From positions 25,581-89,580 of the forward strand of contig JAZDFV010000002.1 of assembly GCA_043807585.1 (NCBI GenBank): a stretch of 64,000 nt of DNA, written 5' to 3'. The number at the start of each line of letters is the position of its first letter. The stretch's first letter is position 1. This document shows positions 4,126-59,820 of this stretch, in pieces. Source of the DNA: Candidatus Jorgensenbacteria bacterium. GTDB taxonomy: Bacteria > Patescibacteriota > Minisyncoccia > UBA6257 > GWB1-50-10. The position numbers and the translations under genes were made by a program. The notes beneath the pieces were generated by a model. It was not told the origin of the DNA and searched no databases. It saw nothing but the letters and a program-made list of their open reading frames with translations.

Positions 4126-4236
4126 CTACGAAATACGAATTTTTTACGAATTTACGAAAACGATTTATAACAGTTTCGTATATTCGTATTATTTCGTATT
4201 TCGTAGCCCTTAGGTATTTTCATATTTCGTAGCGCT
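4126..4236. repeat. TACGAA/TTCGTA word-palindrome element (second copy)
   Basis: About 100 nt are near-identical to 2620-2750 (acgaat.tacgaaaacga...tttcgtatattcgtat..tttcgtatttcgtagccctt.ggta). Confidence 0.8.
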
Positions 4237-4758
4237 ATGGACCTCATACTTTTCAACTTTATTCATTCGTTTGCGGAGAAGTGGTCACTCGTTGACTGGG
4301 GTAGCGTGCTCGTCGCCCAGTACCTCCCCTACGCGATGGGAATCGCCGCTGTCGTGTTTCTCTTTCGTATGGAGCCGTGGAAGGTGCGGGTAGAGGCCTT
4401 TTTAGCAACCGCGCTTTCTCTTCTCCTCGCGCGCGGGTTGCTCACGGAGCTCATCCGTTTCCTTTATGACCGCCCGCGGCCGTTTGTGGAACTCGGGTTC
4501 ACGCCGCTCATCTCGGAGAACAGTGCTTCGTTCCCCTCGGGGCACGCGGCGTTTTTCTTTGCCCTCTCCGCTGTGATTTTCTCCGTGAACCGCACGTGGG
4601 GGTGGTGGTTCCTCGGTCTCTCGCTCTTGAACGGCATTGCGCGCGTCTACGCTGGCGTGCATTGGCCGAGCGACATCCTCGCGGGCGCGGCGGTAGGTGT
4701 CTTCTCGTTCCTCGCGGTGCAGAAGCTTCTCAAACGGGCGCCGGAGCGCGCTTCTTAA
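4237..4758 (+). CDS. PAP2-family membrane phosphatase
   Basis: PAP2 motifs PSGH and SR...H...D are present (RVYAGVHWPSDIL), along with several TM segments. Confidence 0.75.
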   Translation: MDLILFNFIHSFAEKWSLVDWGSVLVAQYLPYAMGIAAVVFLFRMEPWKVRVEAFLATALSLLLARGLLTELIRFLYDRPRPFVELGFTPLISENSASFPSGHAAFFFALSAVIFSVNRTWGWWFLGLSLLNGIARVYAGVHWPSDILAGAAVGVFSFLAVQKLLKRAPERAS

Positions 4759-6635: not shown

Positions 6636-9044
6636 TTATTTTTCCGGCGATAGGATTTTGTTGTAGGCCTTGAGGAAAAGCACGCCAAGGTTTTTGTCCG
6701 GAGCGACGTAATTTTTGAAATCCTTGTTATTTTTGAAGAGGTTGCCCGCTTTAGCCCAAAGTTCCTGCCATTTTATATTCTTGCCGCTTCGTATCTCATT
6801 GTTGAGCATCTTGAGAAGCTGGTCATTCACCAATTTTACCCCAGTTCCTTTTGTCGAGATGATGTGAGCGTTCGGCGCGCGTTCGAGAACCGCTGCCATG
6901 TTGTTATACCCGCCGCACGAGCCGAGCGATACTATTTTTGCGATTGGAGGTATTCTCTCGATTGTTTTATGGGCGTGATAGCTGTGCCCGCGATGAACTA
7001 CCACGATTGTTTCTATATGTTTCTGCGCGAGAATCTCGTCTATCTTTTTTGGACCCTCGTCCTCATAACTTGGACGGTTCGCATATATTTCGACTTTCTT
7101 TCCGATTCCTTGGGAAACGATCCGCACGTATTCTTTTTTTGCTTCTATGCGCCATTCCGGACTGCCGGCATATTGTGAAAGAAAATTTTTGAACGACCCA
7201 TCGCCGTCTTTGTCGTTATAGAAAAAATATTGCTGGATGTTCGTTCCGTCTTTGTTGAAGAGGTCTTTTGAGGGGATTTCAGTTAGGTTCTGAAGTTTAT
7301 ATTTCTCCGACATTTCGTGTATCCATTCCTTGTTTGCTATAGCTTTCTCGCCAAACATGCCGCTCAAAAGTCCGTAGAGCGTTTTTCCCTCTTCGCTGTT
7401 TTCATTTTTTGCGCGTTCGTATTCGTCTTTGATTTTATCCTGAAACACTTCCAATATTTTTTTGTCTTTCACTATACCAAAGATTTCAGCGACGGTTGTG
7501 GCTTGCATGAGCTTATCTCCCTCTTTCTCTATATTAGAAATAGATCTTTCGAGGACGGTTTTACGCGCGGTTTCGTCCATAGTGTTCAAAAAATCATCCA
7601 ATCTGTTAAAACTAGCGCAGAGTTTTATCAATGTTCTGAATTTATTGTAGCCGTTTTGCTCAAGCAATTGATCGCCGGAGACGTGTTCACTTTTCATTTT
7701 CTCCACAAATCTATTGAACAAACCATTGAACGATGAGGTAAACAACTCCTCATCCCCATAGGTCATGAGAAGGTAGAGTTTCTGTGAAGAATGGTTTTCA
7801 ACCGATTTGAAACGCACGGGGTCCGTTGCTTCATGCAGGTCATTTATTTGCCTTACTTCTTTCAGCACCATCGTCTTTAGATATTTATCAGCTATTTCAC
7901 TTCCAAGGTGGTCCGGACGACTTTTAATCTCCATTAGTTTTTCTAGGAATTTTCCATCGTTTTTTGCGATATTGGCCGTTTCCTCAAGGCTCGTATTTTT
8001 TCTTACGATTTCATCGGTTAGTGCACACATTTTTTCTTGAATGTCGGGCGCGTATGTTGATTTTTTAATTTTTGACAATGTCTGTATGAACGGATCTTTG
8101 CTTTCGTTAAGTATTTTATTCACTTCTCTCTCAATGCCTTTTTCATTATCGATTGTATTGTACGGATCTATAATACCTTCTGGAAATTGCTTGATTGCAT
8201 GCTCAATCATTTCCCTTGCATCGGTAGCAGACGCAAGATTATCTGCGTGTCTTAAAACTGCCCACGGTTCAGTGAAAGCCACTCTCTCAACTATTTTCTT
8301 TCCCCACGGTGTGTTTACAAAATTCTCTGCATGGAAAATTATTGTTGGTGCAGTATTTATTTGCGTTGCCGCTTTTTCTAGAATTTTTTGCGCGTATGGT
8401 TGTGTAATAAAACGGTCTGCAAATTCAAAGGCACCCCAAGGGTCGAAATCTGCCGCTTTTTCTATTATTTTTTCTGCGTAGGGCTCATCTATAAAACGGT
8501 CGGCGAACTCAAGTACTAAGGAATGATTTGTTTTGATAGCTTGCTCTACAACTCGTTTGAGAATATCTTTTCCATTTGGGATGTTTTTATAGTTTTCCGC
8601 ATAACGGAGTGCGCCATAACATCTAGAATAGGGAGGGGGTTGGAATCGCTGCGGATCTAGCATCCCTGCACTCTCATTAACAGCTCCCTCAATGATTTTG
8701 TATGCCCATGGTTTGTACTCGTAGCTATCCGCGACCTCAAGCGCATCAATTGGTTGAAGTCTTGCTAATTCTGCGTACGCTTGTTCATCCAATGAACGTT
8801 TTCCTTCAATCTCCTGTTCGTGGAATCTTGTATATTTGCTGTGCGCAGATTCTGGCCGATCCCTCATCTCCACGATCGAGAGGGTGGTAATGAGGGTAAG
8901 CGCTTTAATGACCAAGCCGCTTTTTTCACGGATTCGCCCGAGTATCGTTTTCTCTTCGGTCTCCAACTTCTCAACGCCCTTTTCCGCGGCGTTTTCTTGA
9001 ATTTCGTTCCCTTCCGGTGAATCGTTTTGTTTTTCGAAATCCAT
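6636..9044 (-). CDS. large helical-repeat (HEAT/TPR-like) protein with a C-terminal putative CHAT (caspase-like) peptidase domain
   Basis: About 38-aa repeats (ADRFI..PYA.KI.EKAA.FDPWGAFE) are followed by a His/Cys dyad-like VVVHRGHSYH ... IVSLGSCGGYN. The start was chosen at MDFEKQN because the longer ORF overlaps tRNA-Leu. Confidence 0.6.
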   Translation of the reverse strand: MDFEKQNDSPEGNEIQENAAEKGVEKLETEEKTILGRIREKSGLVIKALTLITTLSIVEMRDRPESAHSKYTRFHEQEIEGKRSLDEQAYAELARLQPIDALEVADSYEYKPWAYKIIEGAVNESAGMLDPQRFQPPPYSRCYGALRYAENYKNIPNGKDILKRVVEQAIKTNHSLVLEFADRFIDEPYAEKIIEKAADFDPWGAFEFADRFITQPYAQKILEKAATQINTAPTIIFHAENFVNTPWGKKIVERVAFTEPWAVLRHADNLASATDAREMIEHAIKQFPEGIIDPYNTIDNEKGIEREVNKILNESKDPFIQTLSKIKKSTYAPDIQEKMCALTDEIVRKNTSLEETANIAKNDGKFLEKLMEIKSRPDHLGSEIADKYLKTMVLKEVRQINDLHEATDPVRFKSVENHSSQKLYLLMTYGDEELFTSSFNGLFNRFVEKMKSEHVSGDQLLEQNGYNKFRTLIKLCASFNRLDDFLNTMDETARKTVLERSISNIEKEGDKLMQATTVAEIFGIVKDKKILEVFQDKIKDEYERAKNENSEEGKTLYGLLSGMFGEKAIANKEWIHEMSEKYKLQNLTEIPSKDLFNKDGTNIQQYFFYNDKDGDGSFKNFLSQYAGSPEWRIEAKKEYVRIVSQGIGKKVEIYANRPSYEDEGPKKIDEILAQKHIETIVVVHRGHSYHAHKTIERIPPIAKIVSLGSCGGYNNMAAVLERAPNAHIISTKGTGVKLVNDQLLKMLNNEIRSGKNIKWQELWAKAGNLFKNNKDFKNYVAPDKNLGVLFLKAYNKILSPEK

Positions 9045-9045
9045 A

Positions 9046-9115
9046 TTTTGTGTGGTGCCCGAGGTGGGAATCCCAGCCTTCGCCTGACTACGGACGGGCA
9101 GGGAACCCACACGGT
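9046..9115 (-). other. tRNA-like 3'-end fragment abutting tRNA-Leu
   Basis: The minus-strand sequence ends ...GATTCCCACCTCGGGCACCA, which resembles the tRNA-Leu 3' end GATTCCCTCCTCGCCCA. It shares ccgtgtgggttc with the 6318-6354 fragment. Confidence 0.45.
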
Positions 9116-9197
9116 GTGGGCGAGGAGGGAATCGAACCCTCATGGGTTGCCCCACACGATTTTGAGTCGTGCGCGTATACCGTTCCGCCACTCGCCC
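9116..9197 (-). tRNA. tRNA-Leu (anticodon CAA)
   Basis: Manual fold: acceptor GGGCGAG/CTCGCCC, anticodon stem CACGA/TCGTG with loop CTCAAAA, a long variable arm and T-arm GAGGG-TTCGATT-CCCTC. Confidence 0.85.
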
Positions 9198-9343
9198 TCT
9201 CCTTTCGCGTTGATATTACCACAAAAATTCGGTACAGTAAATTAAACTATGGCTCGCGTAACCCTTCGACAGGCTCAGGGTTTCCAATCACAGAATCAAG
9301 TTTGTTCGGTATTTATGTGGAGAATCCAAATTTTATACAAAAC

Positions 9344-10201
9344 ATGGCAAGAGTAATCGCCATCTTCAACCAGAAGGGGGGCGTGGGGAAAACTACGACC
9401 TCCATGAACCTCTCCGCGTACCTCGCGATGCGCGGCAAGAAAACGCTCCTCATTGATTTTGATCCGCAGTTCAACGCGACCATCGGCCTCGGGGTCACGC
9501 ATGCGCCGGACGAGACCGTCTACCACGCGCTCCTCGCGGGGCAGGACGTGGAGCGGGTGGTGAAACCCACCTATCTCACCCACTTCCACTTGGCGCCCTC
9601 CTCTGCGGACCTCGCGGGAGCACTTATAGAACTCGTTTATCTCCCGGACCGCGAGCAGTATCTCCAACACTTTGTGGAGAAGGTACGCGACCGCTACGAT
9701 TTCATTTTTATCGATCTTGGGCCCAACCTAAACCTCCTCACGGTGAACGGTCTTGTGGCGGCCGACGAGGTCATCGCTCCCATCCAGTGCGAGTATTTCA
9801 GCTTGGAGGGATTGAGCCAGCTCCTCCAAACCATCACCCTCGTGAGGGAGAATCTGGAGCATCCGCTTAAAGTCACGGGAGCGCTCCTCACTATGTACGA
9901 CAAACGGGAACGCCACTCCCGTGAGATCGCGCGCGAGGTGCGGCGGCGTTTCCCGCACAAAGTATTTGATGTGGAAATCCCGCGCTCGGTGGCGCTCGCG
10001 GAGGCACCCCACTACAAGAAACCAATCATGCTCTATGCGCCGCTCTCGCCCGGCGCCTTGGCCTATGAGGCGCTTGCCGATGAGGTGTTGCGGGAGGCGT
10101 ACGGTGTTCCCACGGCGGGGAGCGTACCGCCCGCGCCACCCATGCCAGCGGATTATCCACAATATCCCCGACTTGACCCCGTTAGAGACAGCCCGCCCTA
10201 A
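9344..10201 (+). CDS. parA: ParA/Soj chromosome-partitioning ATPase
   Basis: The ORF carries a deviant Walker A (NQKGGVGKTTT) and ParA-family sequence. The start was taken at MARVIAIF. Confidence 0.85.
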   Translation: MARVIAIFNQKGGVGKTTTSMNLSAYLAMRGKKTLLIDFDPQFNATIGLGVTHAPDETVYHALLAGQDVERVVKPTYLTHFHLAPSSADLAGALIELVYLPDREQYLQHFVEKVRDRYDFIFIDLGPNLNLLTVNGLVAADEVIAPIQCEYFSLEGLSQLLQTITLVRENLEHPLKVTGALLTMYDKRERHSREIAREVRRRFPHKVFDVEIPRSVALAEAPHYKKPIMLYAPLSPGALAYEALADEVLREAYGVPTAGSVPPAPPMPADYPQYPRLDPVRDSPP

Positions 10202-10247
10202 GGGTCCTTTGGACCGCGCTTGCGCGCGGGCGCGGTCTCTAACGGGG
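10177..10247. repeat. CCGTTAG-TIR element copy A
   Basis: ccccgttagagac ... gtctctaacgggg is a perfect 13-bp TIR enclosing a GC-rich palindromic core. Confidence 0.8.
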
Positions 10248-16000: not shown

Positions 16001-16127
16001 CACCAAATCCCAAGCACCAAATCCCAAATAAACTCCAATCGCTGAAATCTTGGTACAATAATTGAGACGGTTTTGAATTTGGAATTTGAGATTTATTTGT
16101 AATTTGGAATTTGTGGTTTGGAATTTC
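16001..16127. repeat. CCAAAT/ATTTGG word-palindrome element (copy upstream of groEL)
   Basis: caccaaatcccaagcaccaaatcccaaat ... ttggaatttgagatttatttgtaatttggaatttgtggtttggaatttc; the same family occurs at 50641 and 56311. Confidence 0.75.
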
Positions 16128-20508: not shown

Positions 20509-20546
20509 TTATCACATTAAATCGCGACCGCGATTTAATGTGATAA
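20509..20546. repeat. 38-bp near-perfect palindrome ttatcacattaaatcgcgaccgcgatttaatgtgataa
   Basis: It is palindromic and has a near-identical copy at 21153-21190, on the other side of the PaaX-like gene. Confidence 0.8.
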
Positions 20547-20570: not shown

Positions 20571-21152
20571 TTAGAGGTGGAAATGGTGTTTTAACTTCTC
20601 CGCACCTTCGAAATTGCCGACCTCTAAAATGAGAACATTATTCCGATCAATCTCAAAAACACTGCAGATAAAATCTATTTCATTCTCACACTCATAAGGG
20701 GTAATAAACACGCTCTTTTGGAGCGGATAAAATCCCAAATCTTTTACTTTAGCTCGTAATGCATTTCTCGCATTCTTTTGGTAGTCGGGTATATCGAATG
20801 TGACAAGTCGCCATTTCCCGTCCCATGACCGCTCTTCCAATTTCATTTGGTCGAGATCGTAGGTGAGTATCTTATTCTTTCCCAGTTTGGTGAGCGTGAT
20901 TTTTATCTTTCCGTCCGGCAATTGAACATAGTCAATGAGTTCCCTGTCCTGGAGCCTTTTGAGGTCCTGAAGAAACCTTTCTTTCCGTATTTTCTTGTTC
21001 TTGAGATATTGTTTTATCAGTTTCCTTACTATAAGTGCGCCGCTTGTCGGTGAAATGGTGCCGATGAGGAGAACGCCGCCGGCCGCGAGAACGGTTTTTA
21101 GAACGTGATAGGGTTTGGAATTTTTCCTCATCTTTGCGACCATAGCTTTCAT
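20571..21152 (-). CDS. membrane-anchored PaaX-like protein (C-terminal Cas2-fold PaaX_C-like region), AT-rich
   Basis: The C-terminal region WDGKWRLVTFDIPDYQK..R..LR..VKDLGFYPLQKSVFITP resembles a PaaX C-domain. One N-terminal TM segment is predicted. Confidence 0.5.
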   Translation of the reverse strand: MKAMVAKMRKNSKPYHVLKTVLAAGGVLLIGTISPTSGALIVRKLIKQYLKNKKIRKERFLQDLKRLQDRELIDYVQLPDGKIKITLTKLGKNKILTYDLDQMKLEERSWDGKWRLVTFDIPDYQKNARNALRAKVKDLGFYPLQKSVFITPYECENEIDFICSVFEIDRNNVLILEVGNFEGAEKLKHHFHL

Positions 21153-21190
21153 TATATCACATTAACTCTCGGTCGCGATTTAATGTGATA
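21153..21190. repeat. second copy of the 38-bp palindrome (tatatcacattaactctcggtcgcgatttaatgtgata)
   Basis: See 20509-20546. Confidence 0.8.
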
Positions 21191-21813: not shown

Positions 21814-22307
21814 ATTTGCCGCCAAAGAAAAATAGTATAATCCTTAAAGGTCGATGTACTTCATTAACCTCATTATAAAAATATGGTAAAAGGAAACTTT
21901 CTTGGTGCCGCGATTGTTGCAATAATCTACACGATCTATATTTTAATGAACCCCCTTCCAACAAAATGGCAGATGGTGCTAGCGTTGGTGGTTCTTAATG
22001 CTTTGACTATCGTGTTGATGGCTTTTGCATTCAAAGAGTAAAAAAGAGTAATAAGAATTTACCGCCAAAGAAAAACTTGACCCATTCGATAAACTCAGGG
22101 TCAATGCTGAGCAAAGTTGAAGCATTGAAATCAATAAGTAATTTATAGCAATATGCGAAATATGCGGAAAAATTGGCCCTTGGGATTTTTAGGGTTCCTA
22201 TTTTTGCTCGGTATCCCGGGAATATTAACTCAAGATTGGCTTGATGTGGTCTGGCTCGTATGGGTTGTTTGGTTTATTTATTTTATTCCGGAGAAAAAAT
22301 AATTAGC

Positions 22308-25378: not shown

Positions 25379-25440
25379 ACGATAAGACAAGAACGAGGGG
25401 CACCAAAACGGTGCCCCTTGTGCTTTTTTGTTCGGGAGGG

Positions 25441-25518
25441 GTACACCCCGTTAGAGACAAGCCGCCCCTTGGCGGCTGTAGCCCCGCCTTTGGCATGGCG
25501 GTCTCTAACGGGGTACAC
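25441..25518. repeat. CCGTTAG-TIR element copy B
   Basis: gtacaccccgttagagac ... gtctctaacggggtacac is a perfect 18-bp TIR. Confidence 0.8.
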
Positions 25519-28733: not shown

Positions 28734-28874
28734 GCTTTTACGGGGTGAGATTGTGTGGGAAACCCTGTTTTGTGAGGCACCACGTCTGTCCTGTCTCCGA
28801 GACATTTTTCTTAAAGGCAAAGTTCCGCCTTTGGAGCTGAATCAAAAGGCGTGCTACAATCAGAAATGTTCACC

Positions 28875-30629
28875 ATGACTTCGCAGGAAATTCGCAAGGC
28901 ATTCCTGAATTTTTTTACAGAGCGTGGGCACACCGTGGTGCCCTCCGCCTCGCTCGTACCCGACGACCCCTCGGTGCTCTTCACGACCGCGGGGATGCAG
29001 CAGTTCAAGCGGTACTACGCCGAACTTGACCCCACAAAGACGGCGCACCCCTCCTTGGGGAAGCCCGTCGGGAAGAACGCCGTCTCGATTCAGAAATGTT
29101 TCCGTACCTCCGACATTGACGAGGTTGGGGACTCCTCGCACCTTACGTTTTTCGAGATGCTCGGAAACTTCTCCTTCGGCGGCTACTTCAAGGAGAAAGC
29201 CATTCACTATGGCCATGAGTTCATCACGGAGGTGATGAAACTTCCCATCGACAAGGTGAGCGTGTTTGAAGGTGACCGTGAGGTTCCGGCCGACGGCGAA
29301 TCCGAGAAAATTTGGCGTTCGCTCGGCGTCACGAACATTGAGAAAGCGGGACGCGAAGATAATTTTTGGGGTCCCACGGGCACCGAAGGCCCCTGCGGCC
29401 CCACGTCCGAGGTCTATGTGAACACTGCCCTTCGACAAGCTCAGGGCAAACCTCCTTTGGAGGTTTGGAATCTCGTTTTCAACGAGTTTTACTCCGACAA
29501 GAGCAAAAAGCTCACAAAGCTCAAAGCTCCGGGTGTTGATACGGGGATGGGGCTCGAGCGCCTCACGATGGTGTCGCAGGGCGTTCACACAATTTTCGAA
29601 ACAGATCTCTTTACGCCACTTATGCGGCTCCTCCCTGCGGGGATGGAGACAAGGACAAAGCGCATTCTCGCCGACCACGTGCGCGGCATCGCCTTCCTCA
29701 TCTCGGACGGTTTCCGCCCGTCGAACAAGGACGCTGGCTACGTGCTCCGCCGTCTCATTCGCCGCGTCGTGACCCACATCCACCTCGCGGGCGATCCAGT
29801 CGACCCCGCGCATCTTTTCGCGGAGGTGAACGAGCATTACGAAAAATTCTATCCGGAACTGAATGCCGAGGCGGTGCTCGAGGTGTTCGGCGAGGAGCGG
29901 GAGCGGTTCACGAAAACGCTCGAGAACGGTCTCCGTGAGCTCAAGAAGATCCCAAAGCTCGACGCGAAGTCGGCATTCACCCTCTACGAGAGCTACGGTC
30001 TCCCCTATGAGGTGGTGAAGGAATTGGGCGGTGCGCAGGCGCGGGACCTGCGGCGTGAGGATTTTGACCGCGAGTTCTCGCGCCATCAGGAAATTTCGCG
30101 CGCGGGCGCGGAGAAGAAGTTCGGGGGTCACGGACTCGTCTTGAACACAGGCGAGCTCAAAGCGGGGAGCGAGGAAGAACTCCAGCGGGTCACGCGTCTC
30201 CACACGGCGACCCACCTCCTCCAGCGCGCGCTCCGCGAGGTGCTGGGCGCGGAAGTGGAGCAGCGCGGGTCCGACATCACGCCCGAGCGCACTCGGTTCG
30301 ACCTTTCGTTTCCCCGAAAGATTGAGAAGGAAGAGATTTGGCGTGTGGAGGAGATAGTGAATGAAAAGATCAAAGAGGACCTCCCTGTGGGGTTCGTTGA
30401 ACTCCCCAAGGAGGAAGCGGTGAAGACCGGCGCGCTCTTTTTCTTCCGCGAGAAGTACCCTGATCGCGTGAAGGTATATTACGTGGGATGCTCGCTCGAT
30501 GGTGCGTGGAGTAAGGAGTTCTGCGGCGGGCCCCACGTTGCGCGCACGGGGGAGATCGGTCACTTCAGGATCATCAAAGAGGAAGCGGTCGGCGCCGGCG
30601 TCCGCCGCATCCGCGCGACAGTGATTTAA
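28875..30629 (+). CDS. alaS: alanine--tRNA ligase, short form (catalytic plus editing domains, no C-Ala domain)
   Basis: Class II AlaRS motifs and an editing site (TATHLL ... CGGPHV) are present. Confidence 0.9.
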   Translation: MTSQEIRKAFLNFFTERGHTVVPSASLVPDDPSVLFTTAGMQQFKRYYAELDPTKTAHPSLGKPVGKNAVSIQKCFRTSDIDEVGDSSHLTFFEMLGNFSFGGYFKEKAIHYGHEFITEVMKLPIDKVSVFEGDREVPADGESEKIWRSLGVTNIEKAGREDNFWGPTGTEGPCGPTSEVYVNTALRQAQGKPPLEVWNLVFNEFYSDKSKKLTKLKAPGVDTGMGLERLTMVSQGVHTIFETDLFTPLMRLLPAGMETRTKRILADHVRGIAFLISDGFRPSNKDAGYVLRRLIRRVVTHIHLAGDPVDPAHLFAEVNEHYEKFYPELNAEAVLEVFGEERERFTKTLENGLRELKKIPKLDAKSAFTLYESYGLPYEVVKELGGAQARDLRREDFDREFSRHQEISRAGAEKKFGGHGLVLNTGELKAGSEEELQRVTRLHTATHLLQRALREVLGAEVEQRGSDITPERTRFDLSFPRKIEKEEIWRVEEIVNEKIKEDLPVGFVELPKEEAVKTGALFFFREKYPDRVKVYYVGCSLDGAWSKEFCGGPHVARTGEIGHFRIIKEEAVGAGVRRIRATVI

Positions 30630-30866: not shown

Positions 30867-31090
30867 AAGATCCCGCGCAGCGGGATAAAGAATTATGAAC
30901 AAAGAGATCATCTACTGTGAGCAGTGCTATCAAAGCGAGGTGACTTAAATAAAACGCTATGACATGTCATAGCGCCATACCATGGTTATAGCACCGAGAG
31001 AATCTAAGAAAAGTTAGGATATGACACAAGAGACCAGAACCTACCAGAACTGTCCCGCTACGCGGGATCTCGCGAAGCGAGACAAACACT

Positions 31091-32890
31091 ATGTCTGAAT
31101 CAGAAACAATAGTTTGTCAGAATTGTCATAGTTCCTTCGTCATTGAATCGGAGGATTTTACGTTCTACGAGAAAATAAAAGTCCCGCCGCCGACGTGGTG
31201 CCCGGAGTGCGACAGTGCAAAGAGAATGACTTGGAGAAACGAGAGATCTTTGTATTGGCGCGATTGCGGTTTGTGCGGTAAGAAAACACTCTCGATGTAT
31301 TCAAAAGAAAATCCTTTTACTGTTTATTGTCATAAATGTTGGATATCGGATAAGTGGGACTCATTAGTATTCGGGAGAGATTATGATTTTCAGAAAGATT
31401 TTTTCACGCAATTTTCAGAACTCCAAAAAAGCGTACCCCGCGCCTCGGTTCTCCAATATGGGACCAGTGTAAATTGCGAATTTACAAACTACACCAGAAA
31501 CACAAAAAATGTCCTCCTAGCCTATTCGGTTTCTACCGGTGAAAATATATATTATTCATTCACTGTAGATTGGTCTAAAGACGCGTTGGATTCTTTAATG
31601 TTGAAGAATTCCGAATTGATATTTGAAGGATTTAATTCGGATCATTGTTATAATTCTCAATTTCTCGTAGATTGCCGCGATTGCACCGAATCATCGTATT
31701 TGTATGATTGTGTGAACTGCCAGAATTGTTTTATGTCGGTGAACCTTAGAAACAAACAGTTCGTTTTTTATGGAAGACAGCTTTCGAAAGAAGAATATAG
31801 CAAAGCAATTTTAGAAATTGATATCGGAAGTTTTGAGACGAGGGGAAGATTAAAAGAAGAATTTCATAATGTTATTTTGCAAACAATTCATAAGTATGGA
31901 GATGTAGTTAAGGTTGTTAACTGCACCGGCAACTATCTTTCGAATTGCAAAAACGTGAAAAATTCATATAGCGTGTATGATTCCGAGAACGTAAGAAACA
32001 CCATTCGCGCCTTGAAAGCGAGAGACATCAGGAGTGTTTTTAGCTGCGGAGAAGGGAGCGAACTTATTTATAGCGGGATTGTCGGTGGCAAAACCAGTTC
32101 TAATATAAAATTTTTTGCAAGTGCGGATGTGCTACGCGAATCGCAATACACCGATTGGTGTTTAAGTTCATCAAATCTCTTCGGCTGCATCGGCCTTCGC
32201 AACAAGCAGTACTGCATCCTTAACAAGCAATACACGAAGGAGGAATATGAAGCCCTTGTACCCCGCATCATCGACCACATGAACACCATGCCCTATGTAG
32301 ATACCAAGGGCAGGATATACAAATATGGCGAGTTCTTCCCCCCGGAATTGTCTCCCTTCGCCTACAACGAAACCATCGCACAGGAGTATTTCCCCCTGAC
32401 CAAGGATAAAGCTATTCAACAGGGCTACCGCTGGAGGGACGCGGATACGAGAGATTACAAAATAACCAAGAGACCGGAGGATCTCCCCGACCACATCAAA
32501 GATGTAGAGGATGCAATATTGAAAGAAACCATCCAATGCATGCACCACCCTTCGGCAGGCTCAGGGCAGGCCGCCTGCAATCACCAATGCACCACCGCCT
32601 TCAAGGTTATCCCAGAAGAACTTGCCTTCTACCGCAGAATGAACCTCCCGCTCCCACGTCTTTGCCCCAACTGCCGGCACTACGAACGCCTAAAGCAGCG
32701 GAATCCCCTGAAGCTCTGGCACCGCACCTGCCAGTGTGCGGGAGGAAAAAGCGAGAACGGTGTCTACGAGAACACCATAACCCACCCACACGGCACCGGC
32801 CACTGCCTAAACGAATTCGAGACCAGTTACGCTCCAGAGAGAAAGGAAATCGTGTACTGCGAGAGTTGTTATAATACTGAAGTGGTATGA
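31091..32890 (+). CDS. Cys-rich protein (599 aa) with homologous N- and C-terminal double zinc-ribbon modules flanking internal Cys/Asn-rich repeats
   Basis: Multiple CxxC pairs are present. The termini are related (F.I..E..FY......P..CP.C ... LW.R.C), and there is an internal repeat (CFMSVNLRNKQFVFYGRQLSKEEYSKA / CIGLRNKQYCILNKQYTKEEYEAL). Confidence 0.7.
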   Translation: MSESETIVCQNCHSSFVIESEDFTFYEKIKVPPPTWCPECDSAKRMTWRNERSLYWRDCGLCGKKTLSMYSKENPFTVYCHKCWISDKWDSLVFGRDYDFQKDFFTQFSELQKSVPRASVLQYGTSVNCEFTNYTRNTKNVLLAYSVSTGENIYYSFTVDWSKDALDSLMLKNSELIFEGFNSDHCYNSQFLVDCRDCTESSYLYDCVNCQNCFMSVNLRNKQFVFYGRQLSKEEYSKAILEIDIGSFETRGRLKEEFHNVILQTIHKYGDVVKVVNCTGNYLSNCKNVKNSYSVYDSENVRNTIRALKARDIRSVFSCGEGSELIYSGIVGGKTSSNIKFFASADVLRESQYTDWCLSSSNLFGCIGLRNKQYCILNKQYTKEEYEALVPRIIDHMNTMPYVDTKGRIYKYGEFFPPELSPFAYNETIAQEYFPLTKDKAIQQGYRWRDADTRDYKITKRPEDLPDHIKDVEDAILKETIQCMHHPSAGSGQAACNHQCTTAFKVIPEELAFYRRMNLPLPRLCPNCRHYERLKQRNPLKLWHRTCQCAGGKSENGVYENTITHPHGTGHCLNEFETSYAPERKEIVYCESCYNTEVV

Positions 32891-35456: not shown

Positions 35457-35495
35457 AAAAAACCGTCCTGAGTTTACCGAAGGGCGGTTTTTTTG
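35457..35495. terminator. bidirectional terminator hairpin between the convergent T4CP-like gene and efp
   Basis: aaaaaccgtcctgagtttaccgaagggcggttttttt forms the hairpin. Confidence 0.7.
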
Positions 35496-36110
35496 TTATG
35501 CTTTCTCTACCCGCTCAACATACTCTCCAGTCACGGTATTCACGCGCACCACGTCGCCTTCGTTGATGAAGAGGGGGACGTTCGCTTTCGCGCCGGTCTC
35601 GAGCGTGACCGATTTTGTGCCGCCCTGCGCGGTGTCACCGCGGATGGCCGGTGGCGCCTCCGTAACTTTCAGATCCACCTTCACGGGGAGCTCAATGTTG
35701 ATGATCTTTTCGCCGAATTTGAACGCGGTAACCTCCGCATTTGCTTTGAGATATTGACCGGCGTCGCCCATCGCCTCGTCGGCGAGGGAAAACCGGTTGC
35801 CGGGCTTGCCAACCTCATGGAACCAGTATTCACCTCCCGCCTCGCCTTCGCGAGCTTGGCGAGTCGAGGCTGGGTTATTGCGGTAAATGAAATTCACTTT
35901 TTGCCTTTCTATCTCAACCTCATAGAAGCTCTCGTTCTGATGAGCTGCGTAGTCCTGCACCTTGCCGGTGAGGAGGTTCTTGATCTTGAGCTGGGTGACC
36001 GGCTTCCGCTGCTGCATGCGGATGAAGGCGTACTCCAGGACCTCATAGGGATCCGGGTCCTCGTTCTTAGTGAAGATGGTGCCGGCTTTGAGTTCGTTGT
36101 AGGAAAGCAT
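35496..36110 (-). CDS. efp: elongation factor P (with an internal insertion of about 15 aa)
   Basis: It is an EF-P sequence with an extra NPASTRQAREGEAGG segment. Confidence 0.9.
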   Translation of the reverse strand: MLSYNELKAGTIFTKNEDPDPYEVLEYAFIRMQQRKPVTQLKIKNLLTGKVQDYAAHQNESFYEVEIERQKVNFIYRNNPASTRQAREGEAGGEYWFHEVGKPGNRFSLADEAMGDAGQYLKANAEVTAFKFGEKIINIELPVKVDLKVTEAPPAIRGDTAQGGTKSVTLETGAKANVPLFINEGDVVRVNTVTGEYVERVEKA

Positions 36111-37918: not shown

Positions 37919-39403
37919 ATGTCAAGTACTAAGAAAAGGGTATTCATTGCGATGTCCCCGAAGCAATCCCTTCGGGATGCTACGGGGCAGGCCGGCGGCG
38001 TGAAGCGGCCGAGGGTTTTTGTTGCGATGAGTGGGGGCGTGGATTCCTCCGTCGCGGCATTGCTGTTGAAAAAAGCCGGCTACGATTGCGTGGGCGTTTT
38101 TATGAAATGCTGGAGTGGAAACGGCCCCTCGGCATCGCTCGGGGCAAGTTGCGCGGAGCGGGATGCGGAGGATGCGCGGCGGGTCGCGGAACATATCGGC
38201 ATACCGTTCTACGTCTTTGATTTTGAGGAGGAATACAAAAAGCGGGTGGTGGAATATATGGTGGAGGGCTACCGCGCTGGTATTACGCCCAACCCTGACG
38301 TGATGTGCAACCGGGAGATAAAGTTCGGGCTGTTCTTGAAACGGGCGCTCGCGCTCGGGGCGGATTATGTGGCGACGGGGCACTACGTCCGTCTGCGGCG
38401 GAATGATGAATTTAGAATTTCTAATTTTGAATCAATTTCTAATTCCAGAATTAACAATTCAAACATTCAATCAAAATTCAAAATTGAGAATTCAAAATTT
38501 GGTCTTTTTCAGGCGAAGGACTTGAATAAAGACCAAAGTTATTTTTTATGGACATTGACCCAGAAGCAACTAAAATACTGCCTTTTCCCCATCGGTGATT
38601 ATCTGAAGTCCGAGGTGCGCGAAATTGCACGGAAGGCGGGGCTCCCCACCGCGGAGAAAAAGGACTCGCAGGGCATCTGTTTCCTGGGCGATGTCCCACT
38701 CAAGGACTTTTTGAAGCAGTATTTGCCGGAGCGGGAGGGGCCAGTGGTGCTTGCCCTGAGCGGAGCCGAAGGGACGGTGTATAAGAAAATAGGGGAGCAT
38801 GAGGGGGCGCATTTCTACACTATCGGTCAGCGCCACGGATTTTTGGTGCAAATGGCAAAGGGCTCCGATGGCAGAGCCATCGCGAGTCCACGACAAAGTC
38901 GGGACAAAGGGCAAAGCAAGGGAGAAACTAAGCCGCACTACATAGCGGCGAAGGATGTCGCAACAAATACGCTTATAGTTGCCGAAGGGAGTGATCACCC
39001 GTCGCTCTTTCAAAGAGAGGTCTCATTAACCGACATCAATTTCATCAATCCACATTCATTAGAAATTGGAAATTGTCTCGCTACGCGAGATCCCGCGAAG
39101 CGGGAGAAATTGGAAATTCCCGTGCTCGCACGGGTGCGGTACCGCCAGCCGCTCTTTGAAGCGACGCTGATTTACTCTGATGGGGAGCGGATAAATGCTG
39201 ATGGAAATCCGTATAAATCAGTTTCAAAATCCGCATCAATCCGCATAGTTTTCAAAAACCCTCAAAAATTCGTCGCTCCCGGCCAGTCCGCGGTGTTTTA
39301 TTTACCCGCCCGTAGCGGTGCGAAGGCGGGCTTGCCCGTCCGAAGCTCGGCGAAGGAGGGTCGCGAGGAGCTTGAAATGTTGGGTGGCGGAATGATTTTG
39401 TAA
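37919..39403 (+). CDS. mnmA: tRNA 2-thiouridine synthase MnmA carrying three in-frame repeat-derived insertions
   Basis: A PP-loop (SGGVDSS) is present, and the ORF is about 130 aa longer than typical MnmA. Insertions sit at 38401-38505 (AT word-palindrome), about 38870-38945, and 39073-39106 (palindromic repeat), and a repeat-derived C-terminal tail follows from about 39325. Confidence 0.85.
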   Translation: MSSTKKRVFIAMSPKQSLRDATGQAGGVKRPRVFVAMSGGVDSSVAALLLKKAGYDCVGVFMKCWSGNGPSASLGASCAERDAEDARRVAEHIGIPFYVFDFEEEYKKRVVEYMVEGYRAGITPNPDVMCNREIKFGLFLKRALALGADYVATGHYVRLRRNDEFRISNFESISNSRINNSNIQSKFKIENSKFGLFQAKDLNKDQSYFLWTLTQKQLKYCLFPIGDYLKSEVREIARKAGLPTAEKKDSQGICFLGDVPLKDFLKQYLPEREGPVVLALSGAEGTVYKKIGEHEGAHFYTIGQRHGFLVQMAKGSDGRAIASPRQSRDKGQSKGETKPHYIAAKDVATNTLIVAEGSDHPSLFQREVSLTDINFINPHSLEIGNCLATRDPAKREKLEIPVLARVRYRQPLFEATLIYSDGERINADGNPYKSVSKSASIRIVFKNPQKFVAPGQSAVFYLPARSGAKAGLPVRSSAKEGREELEMLGGGMIL

Positions 39404-39489: not shown

Positions 39490-39600
39490 TATTGGTCGTA
39501 AGTTATTTGTTAGACGCTGATAAACGCTGATTTGCAGAACGCTGATTTACGCCGATGTTATCAGTCATAAGTTATCAGTCATAAGTTATAAGTTACTCCC
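39490..39600. repeat. CGCTGAT/ATCAG word-palindrome upstream of comEC
   Basis: acgctgat x3 is followed by atcagtcataagtt x2. Confidence 0.6.
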
Positions 39601-44715: not shown

Positions 44716-45306
44716 GTGTACAGATTCAAAGAAGAAAAAACACTGGTGCTCATCAAACCCGATGGCGTGAAGCGGGGACTCGTGGGAGAGATCATCCGCC
44801 GCGTGGAACAGCGCGGTCTGAAGATTGTCGCTTTGAAGATGTTCCAGGCCGCACCCGATGAGCTTGAAAAGCACTATCCGAAAACCAAAGAATATTTTGC
44901 GAGTTTGGGAGGCAAAACGCTTGCCACCTACGCGAAGTACGGGATGGATCCCGTGAAGGAGATGGGAACGTCGGACCCGGAAAAGATCGGGGAACAGGTG
45001 CACCAGTGGGTTGTGGACTTTATGACCTCGGGGCCGCTTGTCAAGATGGTGGTGCAGGGTCTCCATGCGGTGGAAATGGTGCGGAAACTGGTAGGGCCTA
45101 CCATGCCGGCCCAGGCGGAGATGGGGACCGTGAGGGGCGACTTTTCGGTTGATTCCGCGGCGCTTGCGAATACGCAAAAACGGGCCGTCCACAACCTCGT
45201 GCACGCCTCCGGGTCCGTTGAAGAGGCGGAAAAAGAGATAGCGCTGTGGCTCACCCCGTTAGAAATCCACGAATACAAGCGGGCGGAGGAGGACATCATG
45301 TTTTAG
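44716..45306 (+). CDS. ndk: nucleoside diphosphate kinase (long form with insertions)
   Basis: The NDK sequence is present (LVLIKPDGV...NLVHAS). Confidence 0.8.
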   Translation: MYRFKEEKTLVLIKPDGVKRGLVGEIIRRVEQRGLKIVALKMFQAAPDELEKHYPKTKEYFASLGGKTLATYAKYGMDPVKEMGTSDPEKIGEQVHQWVVDFMTSGPLVKMVVQGLHAVEMVRKLVGPTMPAQAEMGTVRGDFSVDSAALANTQKRAVHNLVHASGSVEEAEKEIALWLTPLEIHEYKRAEEDIMF

Positions 45307-56310: not shown

Positions 56311-56462
56311 AAAATTGAAATTTGAGTCCAACCCATAAAAATTCCAAATGACAAATTCCAAATCTCAAATAATATCCAATAGCCTAAATTCCAAACTTTT
56401 CGGAGGTTGGTATTTGAGATTTGGTATTTATTTGTTATTTGGTGCTTGGAATTTGAGATTTC
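56311..56462. repeat. CCAAAT/ATTTGG word-palindrome element (copy upstream of rplD)
   Basis: aaattccaaatgacaaattccaaatctcaaat ... ggtatttgagatttggtatttatttgttatttggtgcttggaatttgagatttc. Confidence 0.75.
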
Positions 56463-56469
56463 TAAACTT

Positions 56470-57124: not shown

Positions 57125-57235
57125 ACTAAGATACCTACCTATGCAACTCCATATTTATAAACACAAAACATTAATTAGCAGCGAAAGGGCCGTGGCTATT
57201 ACGGTCGCCTATGGCGACCTGTCTCTAACGGGATG
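57125..57235. repeat. CCGTTAG-TIR element copy E whose right TIR contains the rplW start codon
   Basis: catgaatcccgttagagaca ... tgtctctaacgggATGaaa. Confidence 0.8.
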
Positions 57236-57604
57236 AAACTCTTCTCCCGAACCAAAAAAGAGGAAAAGAAGCCGGCGGTGACTGCGGCGCCCGCGGCACC
57301 GGCATTGCGCGGCGAGCACGCCCAGCCGCTCGAAGGGTTTTCCCCGGTCCAGCGCCCCTATGTGAGTGAGAAGACGCACGGGCTCGAGCGACACCGCGCG
57401 TACGCGTTCCTGATAAACCCTTCAGCGAACAAGGAGATGATTAAGCGGTATGTGGAGGAGCGTTATAAAGTGAACGTGGAACACGTGAACATCACCAGCA
57501 TTGCCTCAAAGGCAAAGCAGTTCCGGGGGCGCGTCCATCACGTCGGCAAGCGGAAAAAGGCCATCGTGCGGGTCCGCGAGGGACAGCGTATAGAAATTTC
57601 GTAA
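57233..57604 (+). CDS. rplW: 50S ribosomal protein L23 (N-terminally extended)
   Basis: An L23 core follows an Ala/Pro-rich N-terminal stretch of about 30 aa. Confidence 0.9.
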   Translation: MKLFSRTKKEEKKPAVTAAPAAPALRGEHAQPLEGFSPVQRPYVSEKTHGLERHRAYAFLINPSANKEMIKRYVEERYKVNVEHVNITSIASKAKQFRGRVHHVGKRKKAIVRVREGQRIEIS

Positions 57605-57650
57605 TGGCTTTGTCTAAAATTACAAGACAAAATCGCAGGAATTTTAGGTC
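57605..57650 (+). terminator. conserved post-stop hairpin gggctttgtctaaaatt-loop-aattttag (copy after rplW; others lie after rpsS, rplV, rplP and rpsN)
   Basis: The same 45-nt motif follows five r-protein stop codons (57605, 59031, 59821, 61299, 63949). Confidence 0.6.
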
Positions 57651-57687
57651 CTCGACTGAGCTCGGCCGAACGTCCCACAAAACCTTA

Positions 57688-57790
57688 CCCAGCACATAAA
57701 AGTATGAAAACATCAACCAATCTTAAAGTAATTACTTCTCGATTGAACGATTTGTACCAAGAAAGTCGCTTGGTTACTTTTATGTGCTGG
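57688..57790. repeat. CAGCACATAAA-TIR element R1 (about 103 nt, TIR cccagcacataaaagta / tacttttatgtgctggg)
   Basis: There are six copies in the r-protein operon spacers (57688, 59087, 60742, 61355, 62013 and 63592). R1, R2 and R4 are near-identical. Confidence 0.85.
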
Positions 57791-57852
57791 GTGCTCAAAT
57801 TTTCAGCAAAATTTAGCATCGCCTTCGGCTCGCAAATTTTGGTAAATTTGGC

Positions 57853-58674
57853 ATGAAACAGCACCGTCCATACACGCCTTCCCGTCGCCACATGACCGTG
57901 GTGGACTATTCGTCCATTACCGCGAAGGAACCCTTGAAGTCGCTCACGCGCCGCTTCCCCAAGCGGGGCGGGAGGAATTCCCAGGGGCGCATCACCATGC
58001 GCCACCAGGGCGGCGGCAATAAAGCGCTCTACCGCATGGTGGATTTCCGTATGAACAAAGCGGGTGTTCCAGCCAGGGTGGAAGCGATCGAATACGATCC
58101 ATACCGCACCGCTTTCATTGCGCGGCTCCTCTATCGGGACGGCGAGCGGCGCTACGCGCTTGCCTCCCATGGACTCGCGGTAGGCGATGTGGTGACAACG
58201 GGTGAAGAGGCGCCGGCAAAGCCGGGCAACCGAACGTCCCTTCAGCGCATTCCGGTAGGCACTTTTGTGTATAATATAGAGCTCTCGCCTGGCCGCGGCG
58301 GCCAGATCGCCCGTTCCGCCGGCTCAACGGTGCAGGTGCTCGCGAACGAGGACGGCTACACGCATCTTAAAATGCCGTCGGGGGAGGTTCGAAAGGTGCC
58401 ATGGAACGGCTGCGCCTCCATCGGTCAGGTATCGAATCCGGAACATAAATTCGTGACCATAGGGAAAGCGGGCCGCTCGCGGTGGCTCGGGGTGCGCCCG
58501 ACGGTGCGCGCAAAGGCGATGAACCCGCGTGACCACAAGTACGGCGGCGGCGAGGGGAGTACCCAGCGCGGCACCAAGCGTCCCAAGGACAAGTGGGGGA
58601 ATATCACCGGAGGCCGGAGGACCCGCAATAAGAAAAAGTGGTCGAGCGTGCTCATCATGAAGCGAAGATCTTAA
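57853..58674 (+). CDS. rplB: 50S ribosomal protein L2
   Basis: The L2 sequence is present. Confidence 0.95.
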   Translation: MKQHRPYTPSRRHMTVVDYSSITAKEPLKSLTRRFPKRGGRNSQGRITMRHQGGGNKALYRMVDFRMNKAGVPARVEAIEYDPYRTAFIARLLYRDGERRYALASHGLAVGDVVTTGEEAPAKPGNRTSLQRIPVGTFVYNIELSPGRGGQIARSAGSTVQVLANEDGYTHLKMPSGEVRKVPWNGCASIGQVSNPEHKFVTIGKAGRSRWLGVRPTVRAKAMNPRDHKYGGGEGSTQRGTKRPKDKWGNITGGRRTRNKKKWSSVLIMKRRS

Positions 58675-58700
58675 CCCCAACAAGCGATCCCTATAACTCT

Positions 58701-59030
58701 ATGTCCAGAAGCATTCGCAAAGGTCCGTGGGTTGACCCCAAGCTCTTGAAGAAGGTGAGCCGGCTCAAGCTTGGCGATCGCACGGTCATCAAAACGTGGT
58801 CGCGCGATTCTGAGATTGCGCCCGAGATGGTAGGGTTTGTCTTCGACATCCATAACGGCAGGCAGTTCATCGAGGTGACGATTTCGGAAGATATGGTGGG
58901 ACATCGTTTGGGTGAGTTCTCGCTGACCCGGAAGTTCGTGAAGCATGGAGGGAAAATGCAGCGTGACATCGAGAAAAGTGCCGAAGCGACCGCCGCCACC
59001 CCCAAGCCGCCCGCGCCTGCCGGTAAGTAA
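58701..59030 (+). CDS. rpsS: 30S ribosomal protein S19 (C-terminally extended)
   Basis: The S19 sequence is followed by an extended C-terminal tail. Confidence 0.9.
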   Translation: MSRSIRKGPWVDPKLLKKVSRLKLGDRTVIKTWSRDSEIAPEMVGFVFDIHNGRQFIEVTISEDMVGHRLGEFSLTRKFVKHGGKMQRDIEKSAEATAATPKPPAPAGK

Positions 59031-59086
59031 GGGCTTTGTCTAAAATTACAAGACGAAATCGCAGGAATTTTAGCAACAAAACCTTA

Positions 59087-59190
59087 CCCAGCACATAAAA
59101 GTATGAAAACATCAACCAATCTTAAAGTAATTACTTCTCGATTGAACGATTTGTACCAAGAAAGTCGCTTGGTTACTTTTATGTGCCGGG
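59087..59190. repeat. CAGCACATAAA-TIR element R2
   Basis: It is near-identical to R1. Its right flank, gtggacattcggctgagctcagtcgaagccctcg, is shared with R6 and, in inverse orientation, with the R1 left flank. Confidence 0.85.
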
Positions 59191-59262
59191 TGGACATTCG
59201 GCTGAGCTCAGTCGAAGCCCTCGGTTTTATAATCGCTCGTAAAACTCGCGAATAAAAACGGC

Positions 59263-59820
59263 ATGCCCGAAACCACCACCGCAAAACTCAAATATCTTCA
59301 CATCACGCCGCGCAAAACGCGTGCGGTGGCGGACCTCATCCGCGGGCTCTCCGTGAATGAGGCGGAGGCGCAACTTTCCCTCACCGCACGGCGCGCGGGA
59401 GTACCCCTCCTGAAGCTCCTACGTTCGGCGGTAGCGAACGCAAAGCAAGTGTTGAAGAAAGAGCCAGCCGAACTCTTCGTAAAGGAGATACGGGTGGATT
59501 TGGGTCCCCGGTTCAAACGGTGGAACCCCCGAGCCCGCGGAGCGGTGAACCTTGTGGAGAAAAAGATGAGCCATGTGACAGTGGTCCTCGGCGTCATGGA
59601 GCATCCGCGCCCGGCGCGCTTCGTGTTCCCCGAAAAACCGAAAAAGGAGAAAAAGGAGAAAAAGGAGAAACGCGGGCACAAGCACGAACATGAAGCCAAA
59701 GAGAAACCCGCTGGTGAGGCGCCCCGCGGGGAGGAGAAAAAGAAAGCGAAGGAGGAACCGTGGCGCGGCGGCGGGCGCAAAGGGTTTCTCGGGCGCTTGT
59801 TCCGGCGCAAGGCCGTCTAG
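59263..59820 (+). CDS. rplV: 50S ribosomal protein L22 with K/E-rich C-terminal extension
   Basis: An L22 core is followed by an extension containing KKEKKEKKEK. Confidence 0.9.
   Translation: MPETTTAKLKYLHITPRKTRAVADLIRGLSVNEAEAQLSLTARRAGVPLLKLLRSAVANAKQVLKKEPAELFVKEIRVDLGPRFKRWNPRARGAVNLVEKKMSHVTVVLGVMEHPRPARFVFPEKPKKEKKEKKEKRGHKHEHEAKEKPAGEAPRGEEKKKAKEEPWRGGGRKGFLGRLFRRKAV

Follow-up and report, generated by a model that had tools for sequence, protein, structure and literature searches.

The stretch of 64,000 nt analysed here (the window) comes from Candidatus Jorgensenbacteria, a member of the Patescibacteria or Candidate Phyla Radiation (CPR), and contains an identical 23-nt sequence, GCCCTTCGACAAGCTCAGGGCAA, in the genes alaS and fusA, where it is translated in two different frames. 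This sequence belongs to a family of very small hairpins whose stems covary, whose sites are filled in some orthologous genes and paralogous repeats and empty in others, and whose bases are conserved in alaS far more strictly than the encoded peptide would demand. On balance we consider it probable that these hairpins are ultra-small mobile modules of 27–30 nt, resembling repetitive extragenic palindromic (REP) sequences and Rickettsia palindromic elements (RPEs), which are kept in frame in tolerant protein loops and would spread as single-stranded hairpin DNA. If true, the family would be the smallest known kind of bacterial repeat, with about 30 bases that can enter essential genes and be translated there, and the reduced genomes of CPR would have in it a simple means of varying protein loops. 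A previous reading of the window based on its letters (the sequence-only reading) had already proposed a small RPE-like sequence that inserts or copies into coding DNA. The results support that proposal, with two qualifications: the likeness to RPEs is functional and not one of family kinship, and the mobilising mechanism is an interpretation. That the motif is pan-bacterial was a point absent from that reading.

Copies of the hairpin in the window

An exact-match scan located the 23-mer at two places in the window, both on the + strand: positions 29427-29449 in alaS (open reading frame, ORF, 28851-30629) and 51017-51039 in fusA (ORF 50779-52914). The sequence-only reading, which had reported this pair, placed the start of the first copy at 29426, one base before the real one. 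Its frames were correct, the alaS copy being read as A-L-R-Q-A-Q-G-K and the fusA copy as P-S-T-S-S-G-Q. It was also right in considering that such sharing goes beyond chance, since 100 dinucleotide-preserving shuffles gave no match to the 23-mer, even when up to 3 mismatches were allowed. The products of both genes are 100% identical to the NCBI alanine--tRNA ligase and elongation factor G of a Candidatus Jorgensenbacteria metagenome-assembled genome.

A covariance model (model R1) was trained on 148 copies from other organisms and then run on the window. Four significant sites were obtained (E ≤ 3e-5), all of them on the + strand and sense to the local gene. Two are the exact copies, in fusA (model match 51012-51042, E = 1.8e-7) and in alaS (29422-29452, E = 6e-7), where the hairpin consists of GCCCT, an 11-nt loop and AGGGC. 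The third is found at 32548-32566 (+) within a gene encoding a Cys-rich protein (ORF 31091-32890, +); it has two mismatches to the 19-nt core of the motif, CCCTTCGACARGCTCAGGG, and is read as PSAGSGQ (model match 32542-32572, E = 2.7e-5). The fourth is intergenic, at 9262-9280 (+), with one mismatch to the core and a 6-bp stem AACCCT/AGGGTT (model match 9256-9286, E = 1.4e-5), and is flanked by a tRNA gene (9117-9197, − strand) and by parA (start at 9345), to which it is sense. The degenerate copies that the sequence-only reading had noticed in the Cys-rich gene and near parA are therefore genuine members of the family. The same cannot be said of a segment of efp, NPASTRQAREGEAGG (35844-35870, − strand), since the loose similarity to the 23-mer attributed to it has no statistical support and its score is at noise level. 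Two further possible degenerate copies likewise found no support as members, the scores of the three candidates being in the noise range (E = 2-5): an intergenic sequence at 22082-22100 (+) with three mismatches and a 7-bp stem TTGACCC/GGGTCAA (E = 2), and the top of the efp terminator hairpin AAAAAAACCG-CCCTTCGGTAAACTCAGGA-CGGTTTTTT at 35466-35484 (− strand; fold z = −3.0, model E = 2.7).

A hairpin family across bacterial phyla

The 19-mer core was searched in one genome per GTDB species (596 Gb), where about 9 chance matches are expected. It was present in at least 120 stretches from at least 18 phyla, isolates included. The hosts belong to Bacteroidota, Cyanobacteria, Actinomycetota, Alpha-, Beta- and Gammaproteobacteria, Nitrospirota, Myxococcota, NC10 and Planctomycetota, and also to Acidobacteriota, Chloroflexota, Armatimonadota, Eremiobacterota, Desulfobacterota, Latescibacterota, Zixibacteria, Lentisphaerota and several CPR lineages. 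In addition, at least 120 matches to the exact 23-mer were obtained in metagenomes and at least 120 to the 19-mer in IMG/VR viral contigs; E. coli genomes gave no matches to the motif. As to the count of the motif that had been proposed as a check, each of these public collections gave at least 120 matches, which corresponds to a repeat family and not to a coincidence. That phage contigs and at least 18 phyla have one 13-base loop in common implies that they share a recogniser or a vector. We know of no description or name of this element, and a full-text search of the available literature did not retrieve any paper with the motif sequence, its peptides or a matching concept. A scan of the translations of 5/6 reading frames of a composite element against Pfam and NCBIfam did not identify any family.

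The core of the family is a covarying stem of 3-5 bp, sometimes up to 7 bp, which closes a conserved 13-nt loop, TTCGAC-NN-GCTCA. Covariation was evaluated in 148 further copies from the matching loci, unselected for stems, considering a 5-bp stem around the 13-nt loop. Paired cells amounted to 73%, against 48% in shuffled copies and 30-35% when the partner was slid, and the covariation score was 0.61 versus 0.21. The three inner stem pairs were formed in 82-88% of cases, making use of CG, GC, UA and AU.

Copies can be grouped by their tails into the classes CGAACGG (Proteobacteria), TGACA, ACCG, and CAA/CAAGC/CAGGC (CPR and others). Proteobacteria have REP-like elements of ~80 nt, each made of two oppositely oriented units and located in short gaps within operons; up to 22 such places per replicon, none of them annotated, were found in Sphingobium. 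In low-GC genomes, mostly CPR, the motif appears as single units. A motif doublet was also observed on the minus strand of the rpsJ-rplC spacer in two relatives (L121, 12224-12254; L123, 15993-16023). Its first unit is a good copy whose stem is A/T-rich, CAATAC-TTCGRCRRGCTCA-GTATTRA, and its second is degenerate and reversed, ATGG-TGAGTTTATAGAA-CCAT. Paired units comparable to REPINs (inverted REP doublets) therefore exist in CPR too. Two other loci (L088 and L036) contain half-site arrays, with several CCTTCGA units followed by several GCTCAGG units, so the two conserved loop halves can apparently multiply separately.

Motif copies make unrelated genes look alike and give rise to many spurious small ORFs, with peptides such as PFDKLRANG, VRPELVEG and LSLSKG, which are familiar from spurious hypothetical proteins. 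A hammerhead-like core, a T-loop or tRNA fragment, boxA/boxB, attC, a CRISPR repeat and an rRNA fragment were considered as identities of the motif and dropped as lacking support.

Filled and empty sites in genes and intergenic repeats

Elongation factor G (EF-G) is 701 aa long in most of the 120 closest relatives, which read PTYAKGD-K..EHRINLID at the site concerned, and 711 aa in the window. The addition with respect to the 701-aa protein is an insert of 30 nt, or ten codons, at 51016-51045 (+). At the DNA level, fusA likewise has 30 nt more than a relative with 84% identity whose site is empty, and in solved EF-G structures the alignment gap falls exactly at the insert. The sequence AAGGG(C) is present on both sides of it, and the upstream host sequence CGAAGGGC, through a G, forms with GCCCTTCG an 8-bp palindrome in which the host codons GCG AAG GGC pair with the start of the motif. 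Two relatives (79-80% identity) have decayed copies at the same codon, GACCCTTCGACGGACTCAGGGCAAGC and GATCCCTCGACGAGCTCGGTACAAGT, and another one (L123, 91% identity) has an unrelated 30-nt insert at the same place. The insert of L123 is built of words like those of the periodic repeats of the window, ACGCGGATCTGGACACGGATCAACGCAG. In this closest relative (L123, 9561-9965; also L124, 2512-2916), a gene of the PDDEXK_3 nuclease family is situated between rpsG and fusA, which is absent from the str operons of other relatives.

In alanyl-tRNA synthetase (AlaRS), the loop between GPCGP.SE.Y. and.E.WN has three main lengths among 120 orthologues, 2, 7 and 12 aa. The 12-codon loop of the window (29421-29456, +) is equivalent to the 2-residue state plus a 30-nt module, GCCCTTCGACAAGCTCAGGGCAAACCTCCT, and falls in a segment of variable sequence in solved structures. 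The 12-aa motif state occupies at least eight separate places in a neighbour-joining tree, and the nearest relatives of the window do not have it. The location in variable loops suggested by the sequence-only reading agrees with this length variation among orthologues and with the gaps or variable stretches found on comparison with solved EF-G and AlaRS structures. As for the protein as a whole, the window AlaRS has about 587 aa, its 120 relatives all have between 549 and 628 aa, and it matches only tRNA-synt_2c and tRNA_SAD, some records being named 'alanine--tRNA ligase-related'. Another AlaRS (P0138) has TRINADETRIDAEG at a different loop; judging from this sequence and from the EF-G of L123, other repeat words may also enter coding loops. 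In a related Patescibacteria contig (L373), bAvd and RVT_1 genes resembling a diversity-generating retroelement (8596-9995) lie directly upstream of an alaS with the 7-residue loop state.

The bases of the alaS motif are much more conserved than its surroundings. In six motif-bearing alaS genes, whose proteins are 64-68% identical to that of the window, the motif bases are the same, whereas the codons around them vary freely. When the window is compared with L127, codons are identical at 43% of the amino acid-identical columns gene-wide and at 9/9 in the motif, and the longest identical run, of 31 nt, is the motif itself. A comparison of four genomes gave identical codons in 15% of the background and in 6/7 motif codons. 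The alaS motif is thus conserved at the base level, far beyond what the peptide requires. L129 retains the peptide ALRRAQGKPPLE with nine base differences from the window copy, seven of them at synonymous codons, indicating that the peptide can outlast the loss of the base-level constraint. The sequence-only reading had stated that orthologues with the same peptide and different nucleotides would refute an inserted sequence; this is not the situation in 4/6 alaS orthologues and is found solely in the decayed L129. A conversion tract around the motif was discarded because the gene has diverged to the same extent in the motif flanks as elsewhere.

A second hairpin, CAAACCTCC-TTT-GGAGGTTTG, follows the motif in alaS (29447-29467, +), its 5' arm being the tail of the insert and its 3' arm the conserved E-V-W codons. 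It is retained in L127, L128, L130 and L131 with G.U changes only. Taking both hairpins in the six alaS sequences, 95% of positions are paired, against 23-58% when slid. L131 has one compensatory change, from C-G to G-C. Five changes are one-sided, all giving G.U on the sense strand (two in L128/L131 and three in L129), and all four broken pairs sit in L129. These six sequences suggest that the stems have been retained.

Close homologues of the Cys-rich protein read C-x-H-EGK-C, and that of the window reads HPSAGSGQA, with ~30 nt in place of 9 nt. Distant homologues have related inserts at the same site, SSPSAGSGQIGKPI and GSPSETSGQTAGAV, and one of them has PSTGSGQA at a different site. Alignment of orthologues, another check that had been proposed, therefore identified lineage-specific additions at variable loops not only in EF-G and AlaRS but also in the Cys-rich protein. 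In the three genes the additions span 21-30 nt, the nearest orthologues being without them and more distant ones having same-site copies. GAAGG, present at the three coding sites of the window, was rejected as a shared target word as it is not general among other loci.

In other genomes, in-gene copies were in frame every time. In low-GC loci, mostly from CPR, they were found in many housekeeping genes: pepA (L029), gatB (L215), ligA (L139), radA (L186), an ileS-like gene (L167), an ABC ATPase gene (L199), a PolX-like gene (L185, L237), dnaG (L373) and a second site of alaS (L128). Of the sense copies in long ORFs, 11 encode ALRQAQG, 10 PSTSSG and 2 PFDKLR, and the predominance of the first two peptides fits a protein-level filter on the copies retained. 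The survival of copies in genes is attributable to the motif being stop-free in 5/6 reading frames, to an added length that is a multiple of three and to loops that tolerate changes in length.

Filled and empty states are also seen in paralogous intergenic sequences. A 27-nt palindrome and putative relative of the motif, GTCCTCGACTGAGCTCGGCCGAACGTC (57648-57674, +), in which a 3-nt spacer separates the halves TTCGAC and GCTCA, occurs in a single copy of an intergenic repeat of ~250 nt and is absent from its four paralogous copies. The same 27-nt module in the opposite orientation, GACATTCGGCTGAGCTCAGTCGAAGCC (59193-59219, − strand), is inserted between GGGTG and CTCG of the ~250-nt repeat, and this site is empty in the copies at ~57793 and ~61460. 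The identical module is found again at 63677-63703 (− strand), where it occupies the homologous site in a far more diverged repeat copy, so that the 59193 and 63677 sites share 35 identical nt inside flanks that are ~60% alike. No target duplication was detected at these clean empty and filled intergenic sites. The half-sites TTCGAC and GCTCAG are common to the 27-nt module and the motif, and ~0.015 occurrences in the window are expected by chance. Target-site duplication was rejected as a rule, since only the AAGGG microhomology of fusA and one 18-nt duplication speak for it. The latter belongs to a metagenome locus (L157) whose motif, at 7853-7875, lies between two diverged versions of the opening 18 nt of a GTPase gene, ATGAATATAAGGAATATT ... 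ATGGACATAAGAAATATT, and is the sole case seen of a long direct target duplication.

The ~250-nt repeat family itself occupies 57590-63780, upstream of ribosomal-protein genes, with copies starting near 57590, 59015, 59800, 61285 and 63480 and ending in ...GGCATG. Three of these copies are 87-100% alike. Within the repeat there are inverted arms of 17 bp, CCCAGCACATAAAAGTA...TACTTTTATGTGCTGGG, and what may be a small ORF (MKTSTNLKVITSRLNDLYQE...).

Proposed spread of the module and alternative explanations

As we understand it, the module would spread in the form of a single-stranded DNA hairpin, through a strand-specific process and without duplication of the target. Two routes can be proposed: an enzyme of the HUH/Y1 type (HUH, histidine-hydrophobic-histidine) would nick the conserved loop, or the 3' end of the module (...GGGCAA) would prime and switch template on a host TTG. 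Copies would stay near the consensus because insertion at the same permissive sites is recent or keeps recurring, or because the hairpin is under selection. In about one third of the in-gene copies, the motif is directly followed by CAA, by a reverse-complemented copy of the 6-11 nt of host coding sequence that come next, and by a loop of 3-5 nt. These host-derived second hairpins appear in alaS, pepA, gatB, ligA, the ileS-like gene and L190, and the host arm ends in TTG each time; priming of ...GGGCAA on a host TTG would produce just such an inverted host copy. A stem of at least 7 bp directly after GGG was found in 8/408 copies, versus 0.17% of control positions (~11-fold). As a general rule, the adjacent host-derived hairpin was discarded, because it accompanies 2% of all copies and about one third of those in genes.

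Orientation was also considered. Within long ORFs of low-GC loci, the GGGCAA class has 15 sense copies and a single antisense one (P ~0.003 against the 3:2 ratio expected from stop codons), and the TGACA class has 1 sense and 5 antisense. As CPR genes are largely co-oriented with replication, the sense bias may be due either to transcription or to replication.

Several points weigh against a mobile hairpin module. When all tail classes are taken together, the 23 sense and 10 antisense copies do not differ significantly from the 3:2 ratio. Predicted hairpin energies are unremarkable (z = −0.3 to −1.3) and a stem of 3-5 bp on a 13-nt loop is weak by itself; thermodynamic stability was in fact abandoned as evidence, since z-scores are ordinary save for the efp terminator and the efp insert. 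Four significant copies in 64 kb is a low density for an active repeat, and no Y1/HUH, reverse transcriptase or transposase family is listed beside copies in annotated relatives. The putative tie between the 27-nt module and the canonical motif is based on the shared half-sites, and the covariance model scores the module at noise level. In AlaRS, the 7-aa state (KNAQGKS) encodes AQGK with different codons, and part of the peptide may predate the motif. Moreover, independent random insertions would hardly give distant lineages the same position, frame and boundaries in AlaRS, and this recurrence could mean one old insertion under selection followed by many losses. Same-site recurrence may be due to homing or permissive-site filtering, or to such an old insertion with many losses. 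The combination of same-codon recurrence with frozen synonymous sites makes gain, loss and selection directly testable in existing metagenomes.

A more ambitious version of the mobile module would take the TTCGAC-NN-GCTCA hairpin as the recognition or nick site of a widespread enzyme or RNA-binding factor. It would represent a new class of ultra-small mobile elements (27-30 nt) that have crossed phyla, perhaps phage-borne, home to the same sites of orthologous and paralogous sequences, remodel loops of essential proteins in CPR and insert by 3'-end priming that leaves an inverted target copy. We regard this version as speculative and rather unlikely.

The main alternative is that the motif is a functional RNA hairpin under selection in transcripts, acting in the binding of a conserved protein, processing, stability or pausing. 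It would then be preserved within mRNAs and untranslated regions, and its being in genes would be a matter of function and not of selfish spread. We judge it improbable as a whole, yet serious enough to deserve attention. It would account for the sense orientation of the four significant copies of the window and of the GGGCAA class, for stem changes in alaS consisting of one compensatory pair and of G.U pairs formed only on the sense strand, and for the frozen synonymous sites of this gene. A loop conserved across phyla on covarying stems is also what protein-bound RNA hairpins have, and some copies are directly after tRNA genes or top a terminator. However, the motif is present in both orientations as inverted pairs in Proteobacteria, the copies with TGACA tails are mostly antisense, and the intergenic CPR copies of the rpsJ-rplC spacer are antisense to the operon. 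In addition, the nearest relatives are without the element in all three genes of the window, which indicates that it is dispensable, and L129 has kept the peptide and lost the bases. The fold energies are ordinary, and Rfam (Rfam 15) at the gathering score gave one tRNA match in the window and nothing else. At E ≤ 1, eight composite-element loci gave weak matches to long-hairpin models (AaHKsRNA41, with 31 bits against a gathering score of 97, and miRNA models).

A second alternative, which we consider quite unlikely, is a DNA-level recognition sequence for uptake or recombination, tolerated in genes like the DNA uptake sequences (DUS) of Neisseria and the uptake signal sequences (USS) of Haemophilus. 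Copies in genes, between genes and as inverted pairs able to act as terminators are consistent with it, and ComEC-type competence proteins are encoded near these loci in CPR genomes. Uptake sequences appear about once per kb and are restricted to one family of bacteria. The low density of the motif in the window and its presence in at least 18 phyla and in phage contigs, at odds with self-recognition, led us to reject membership in DUS/USS, and the covariation of the stem points to folding and not to a duplex site.

It is very improbable that there was one ancient insertion per gene kept for the encoded peptide, with base identity derived from codon preference or short evolutionary distance. 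The AlaRS of distant lineages do share position, frame and boundaries, L129 conserves its peptide despite nine base differences, and the 7-aa loop state also ends in AQGK or AEGK. Nevertheless, this explanation is largely refuted by the use of the same bases in two frames (alaS and fusA), in non-coding DNA and in at least 18 phyla; codon identity in the motif (9/9) against a 43% background and the polyphyletic motif state, absent from the closest relatives, also contradict it. Finally, chance, misassembly or contamination, for which nothing speaks beyond the origin of the window in a metagenome-assembled genome, is refuted in practice by the shuffled controls, by independent NCBI, JGI, ENA and Logan assemblies that carry the same insert at the same codon, and by isolate genomes that also contain the motif.

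Among the known systems closest to the proposed mobile hairpin module are the REP sequences, including bacterial interspersed mosaic elements (BIMEs) and REPINs. Like them, it is a short imperfect palindrome repeated many times, with covarying stems and no target duplication, and in Proteobacteria its inverted doublets fill gaps within operons. The mostly extragenic location of REPs also agrees with the motif in Proteobacteria, whereas 3 of the 4 significant copies of the window are inside genes. Unlike REPs, which are species-specific, the motif is conserved in the 13-nt loop rather than in the stem and has the same sequence across phyla, and in CPR its copies are single units inside coding DNA. 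REPs and REPINs of Proteobacteria are mobilised by RAYTs (REP-associated Y1 transposases). The GT[AG]G 5' head of REPs is absent from the flanks of more than 260 motif copies, and the annotated neighbourhoods examined, those of 13 CPR loci, list no RAYT (PF01797).

RPEs form genus-restricted families of about 100-150 bp that add 30-50 residues. The motif resembles them as a palindromic repeat inserted in frame in genes, essential ones included, giving extra residues at length-tolerant sites. It differs in its module of 27-30 nt and ~10 residues, in its occurrence in at least 18 phyla, with the window itself belonging to Jorgensenbacteria and not to Rickettsia, and in its same-site recurrence in distant orthologues. 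The GC clusters of yeast mitochondria and the double-hairpin elements of Allomyces are hairpins of 30-50 nt that spread in intergenic, rRNA and coding DNA. They are similarly very small, and in-gene CPR copies of the motif often consist of two adjacent hairpins; however, those elements are organellar and have unrelated sequences, and the second hairpin of the motif in CPR comes from adjacent host sequence.

The nick-site hairpins of HUH systems (rolling-circle origins and the ends of IS200/IS605 insertion sequences) also present a conserved loop of 11-13 nt on a covarying stem, an analogy limited to architecture, and their insertion is strand-biased and without target duplication. At the motif, duplication is lacking and the hairpin is supported, and the 15 to 1 bias is inseparable from the direction of transcription; no TnpA, TnpB, HUH gene, cleavage site or element body was identified at motif loci. 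Classification as a miniature inverted-repeat transposable element (MITE) was rejected, since clean filled and empty sites have no duplication, fusA has no more than an AAGGG microhomology, and neither a parent insertion sequence nor terminal repeats were seen. What is unusual in the motif is its size, the identity of the 13-nt loop across phyla, its repeated presence at one codon of distant orthologues and a second hairpin derived from the host.

The window contains other repeated sequences. Periodic low-complexity words, TTTGGAATTTG, CTACGAATTACGAA and ACGCTGATTTACGC, occur between genes in three groups of sites: 16079-16126, 50723-50770 and 56382-56468; 2598-2753 and 4126-4251; and 39514-39556 and 62649-62691. 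Two self-palindromic repeats of 36 nt, TATCACATTAAATCGCGACCGCGATTTAATGTGATA, 94% complementary to each other (20510-20545 and 21155-21190), bracket the ORF 20571-21152 (− strand), with which they may constitute a cassette-like unit. A 33-nt double hairpin, TCCCGCTACGCGGGATCTCGCGAAGCGAGACAA, is present in inverted orientation at 31053-31085, just upstream of the Cys-rich gene, and at 39073-39105. Additionally, a short intergenic repeat of the ACCCCGTTAGAGAC type was found in both orientations at 10176-10203, 25437-25514, 45252-45283, 50075-50106 and 57213-57242.

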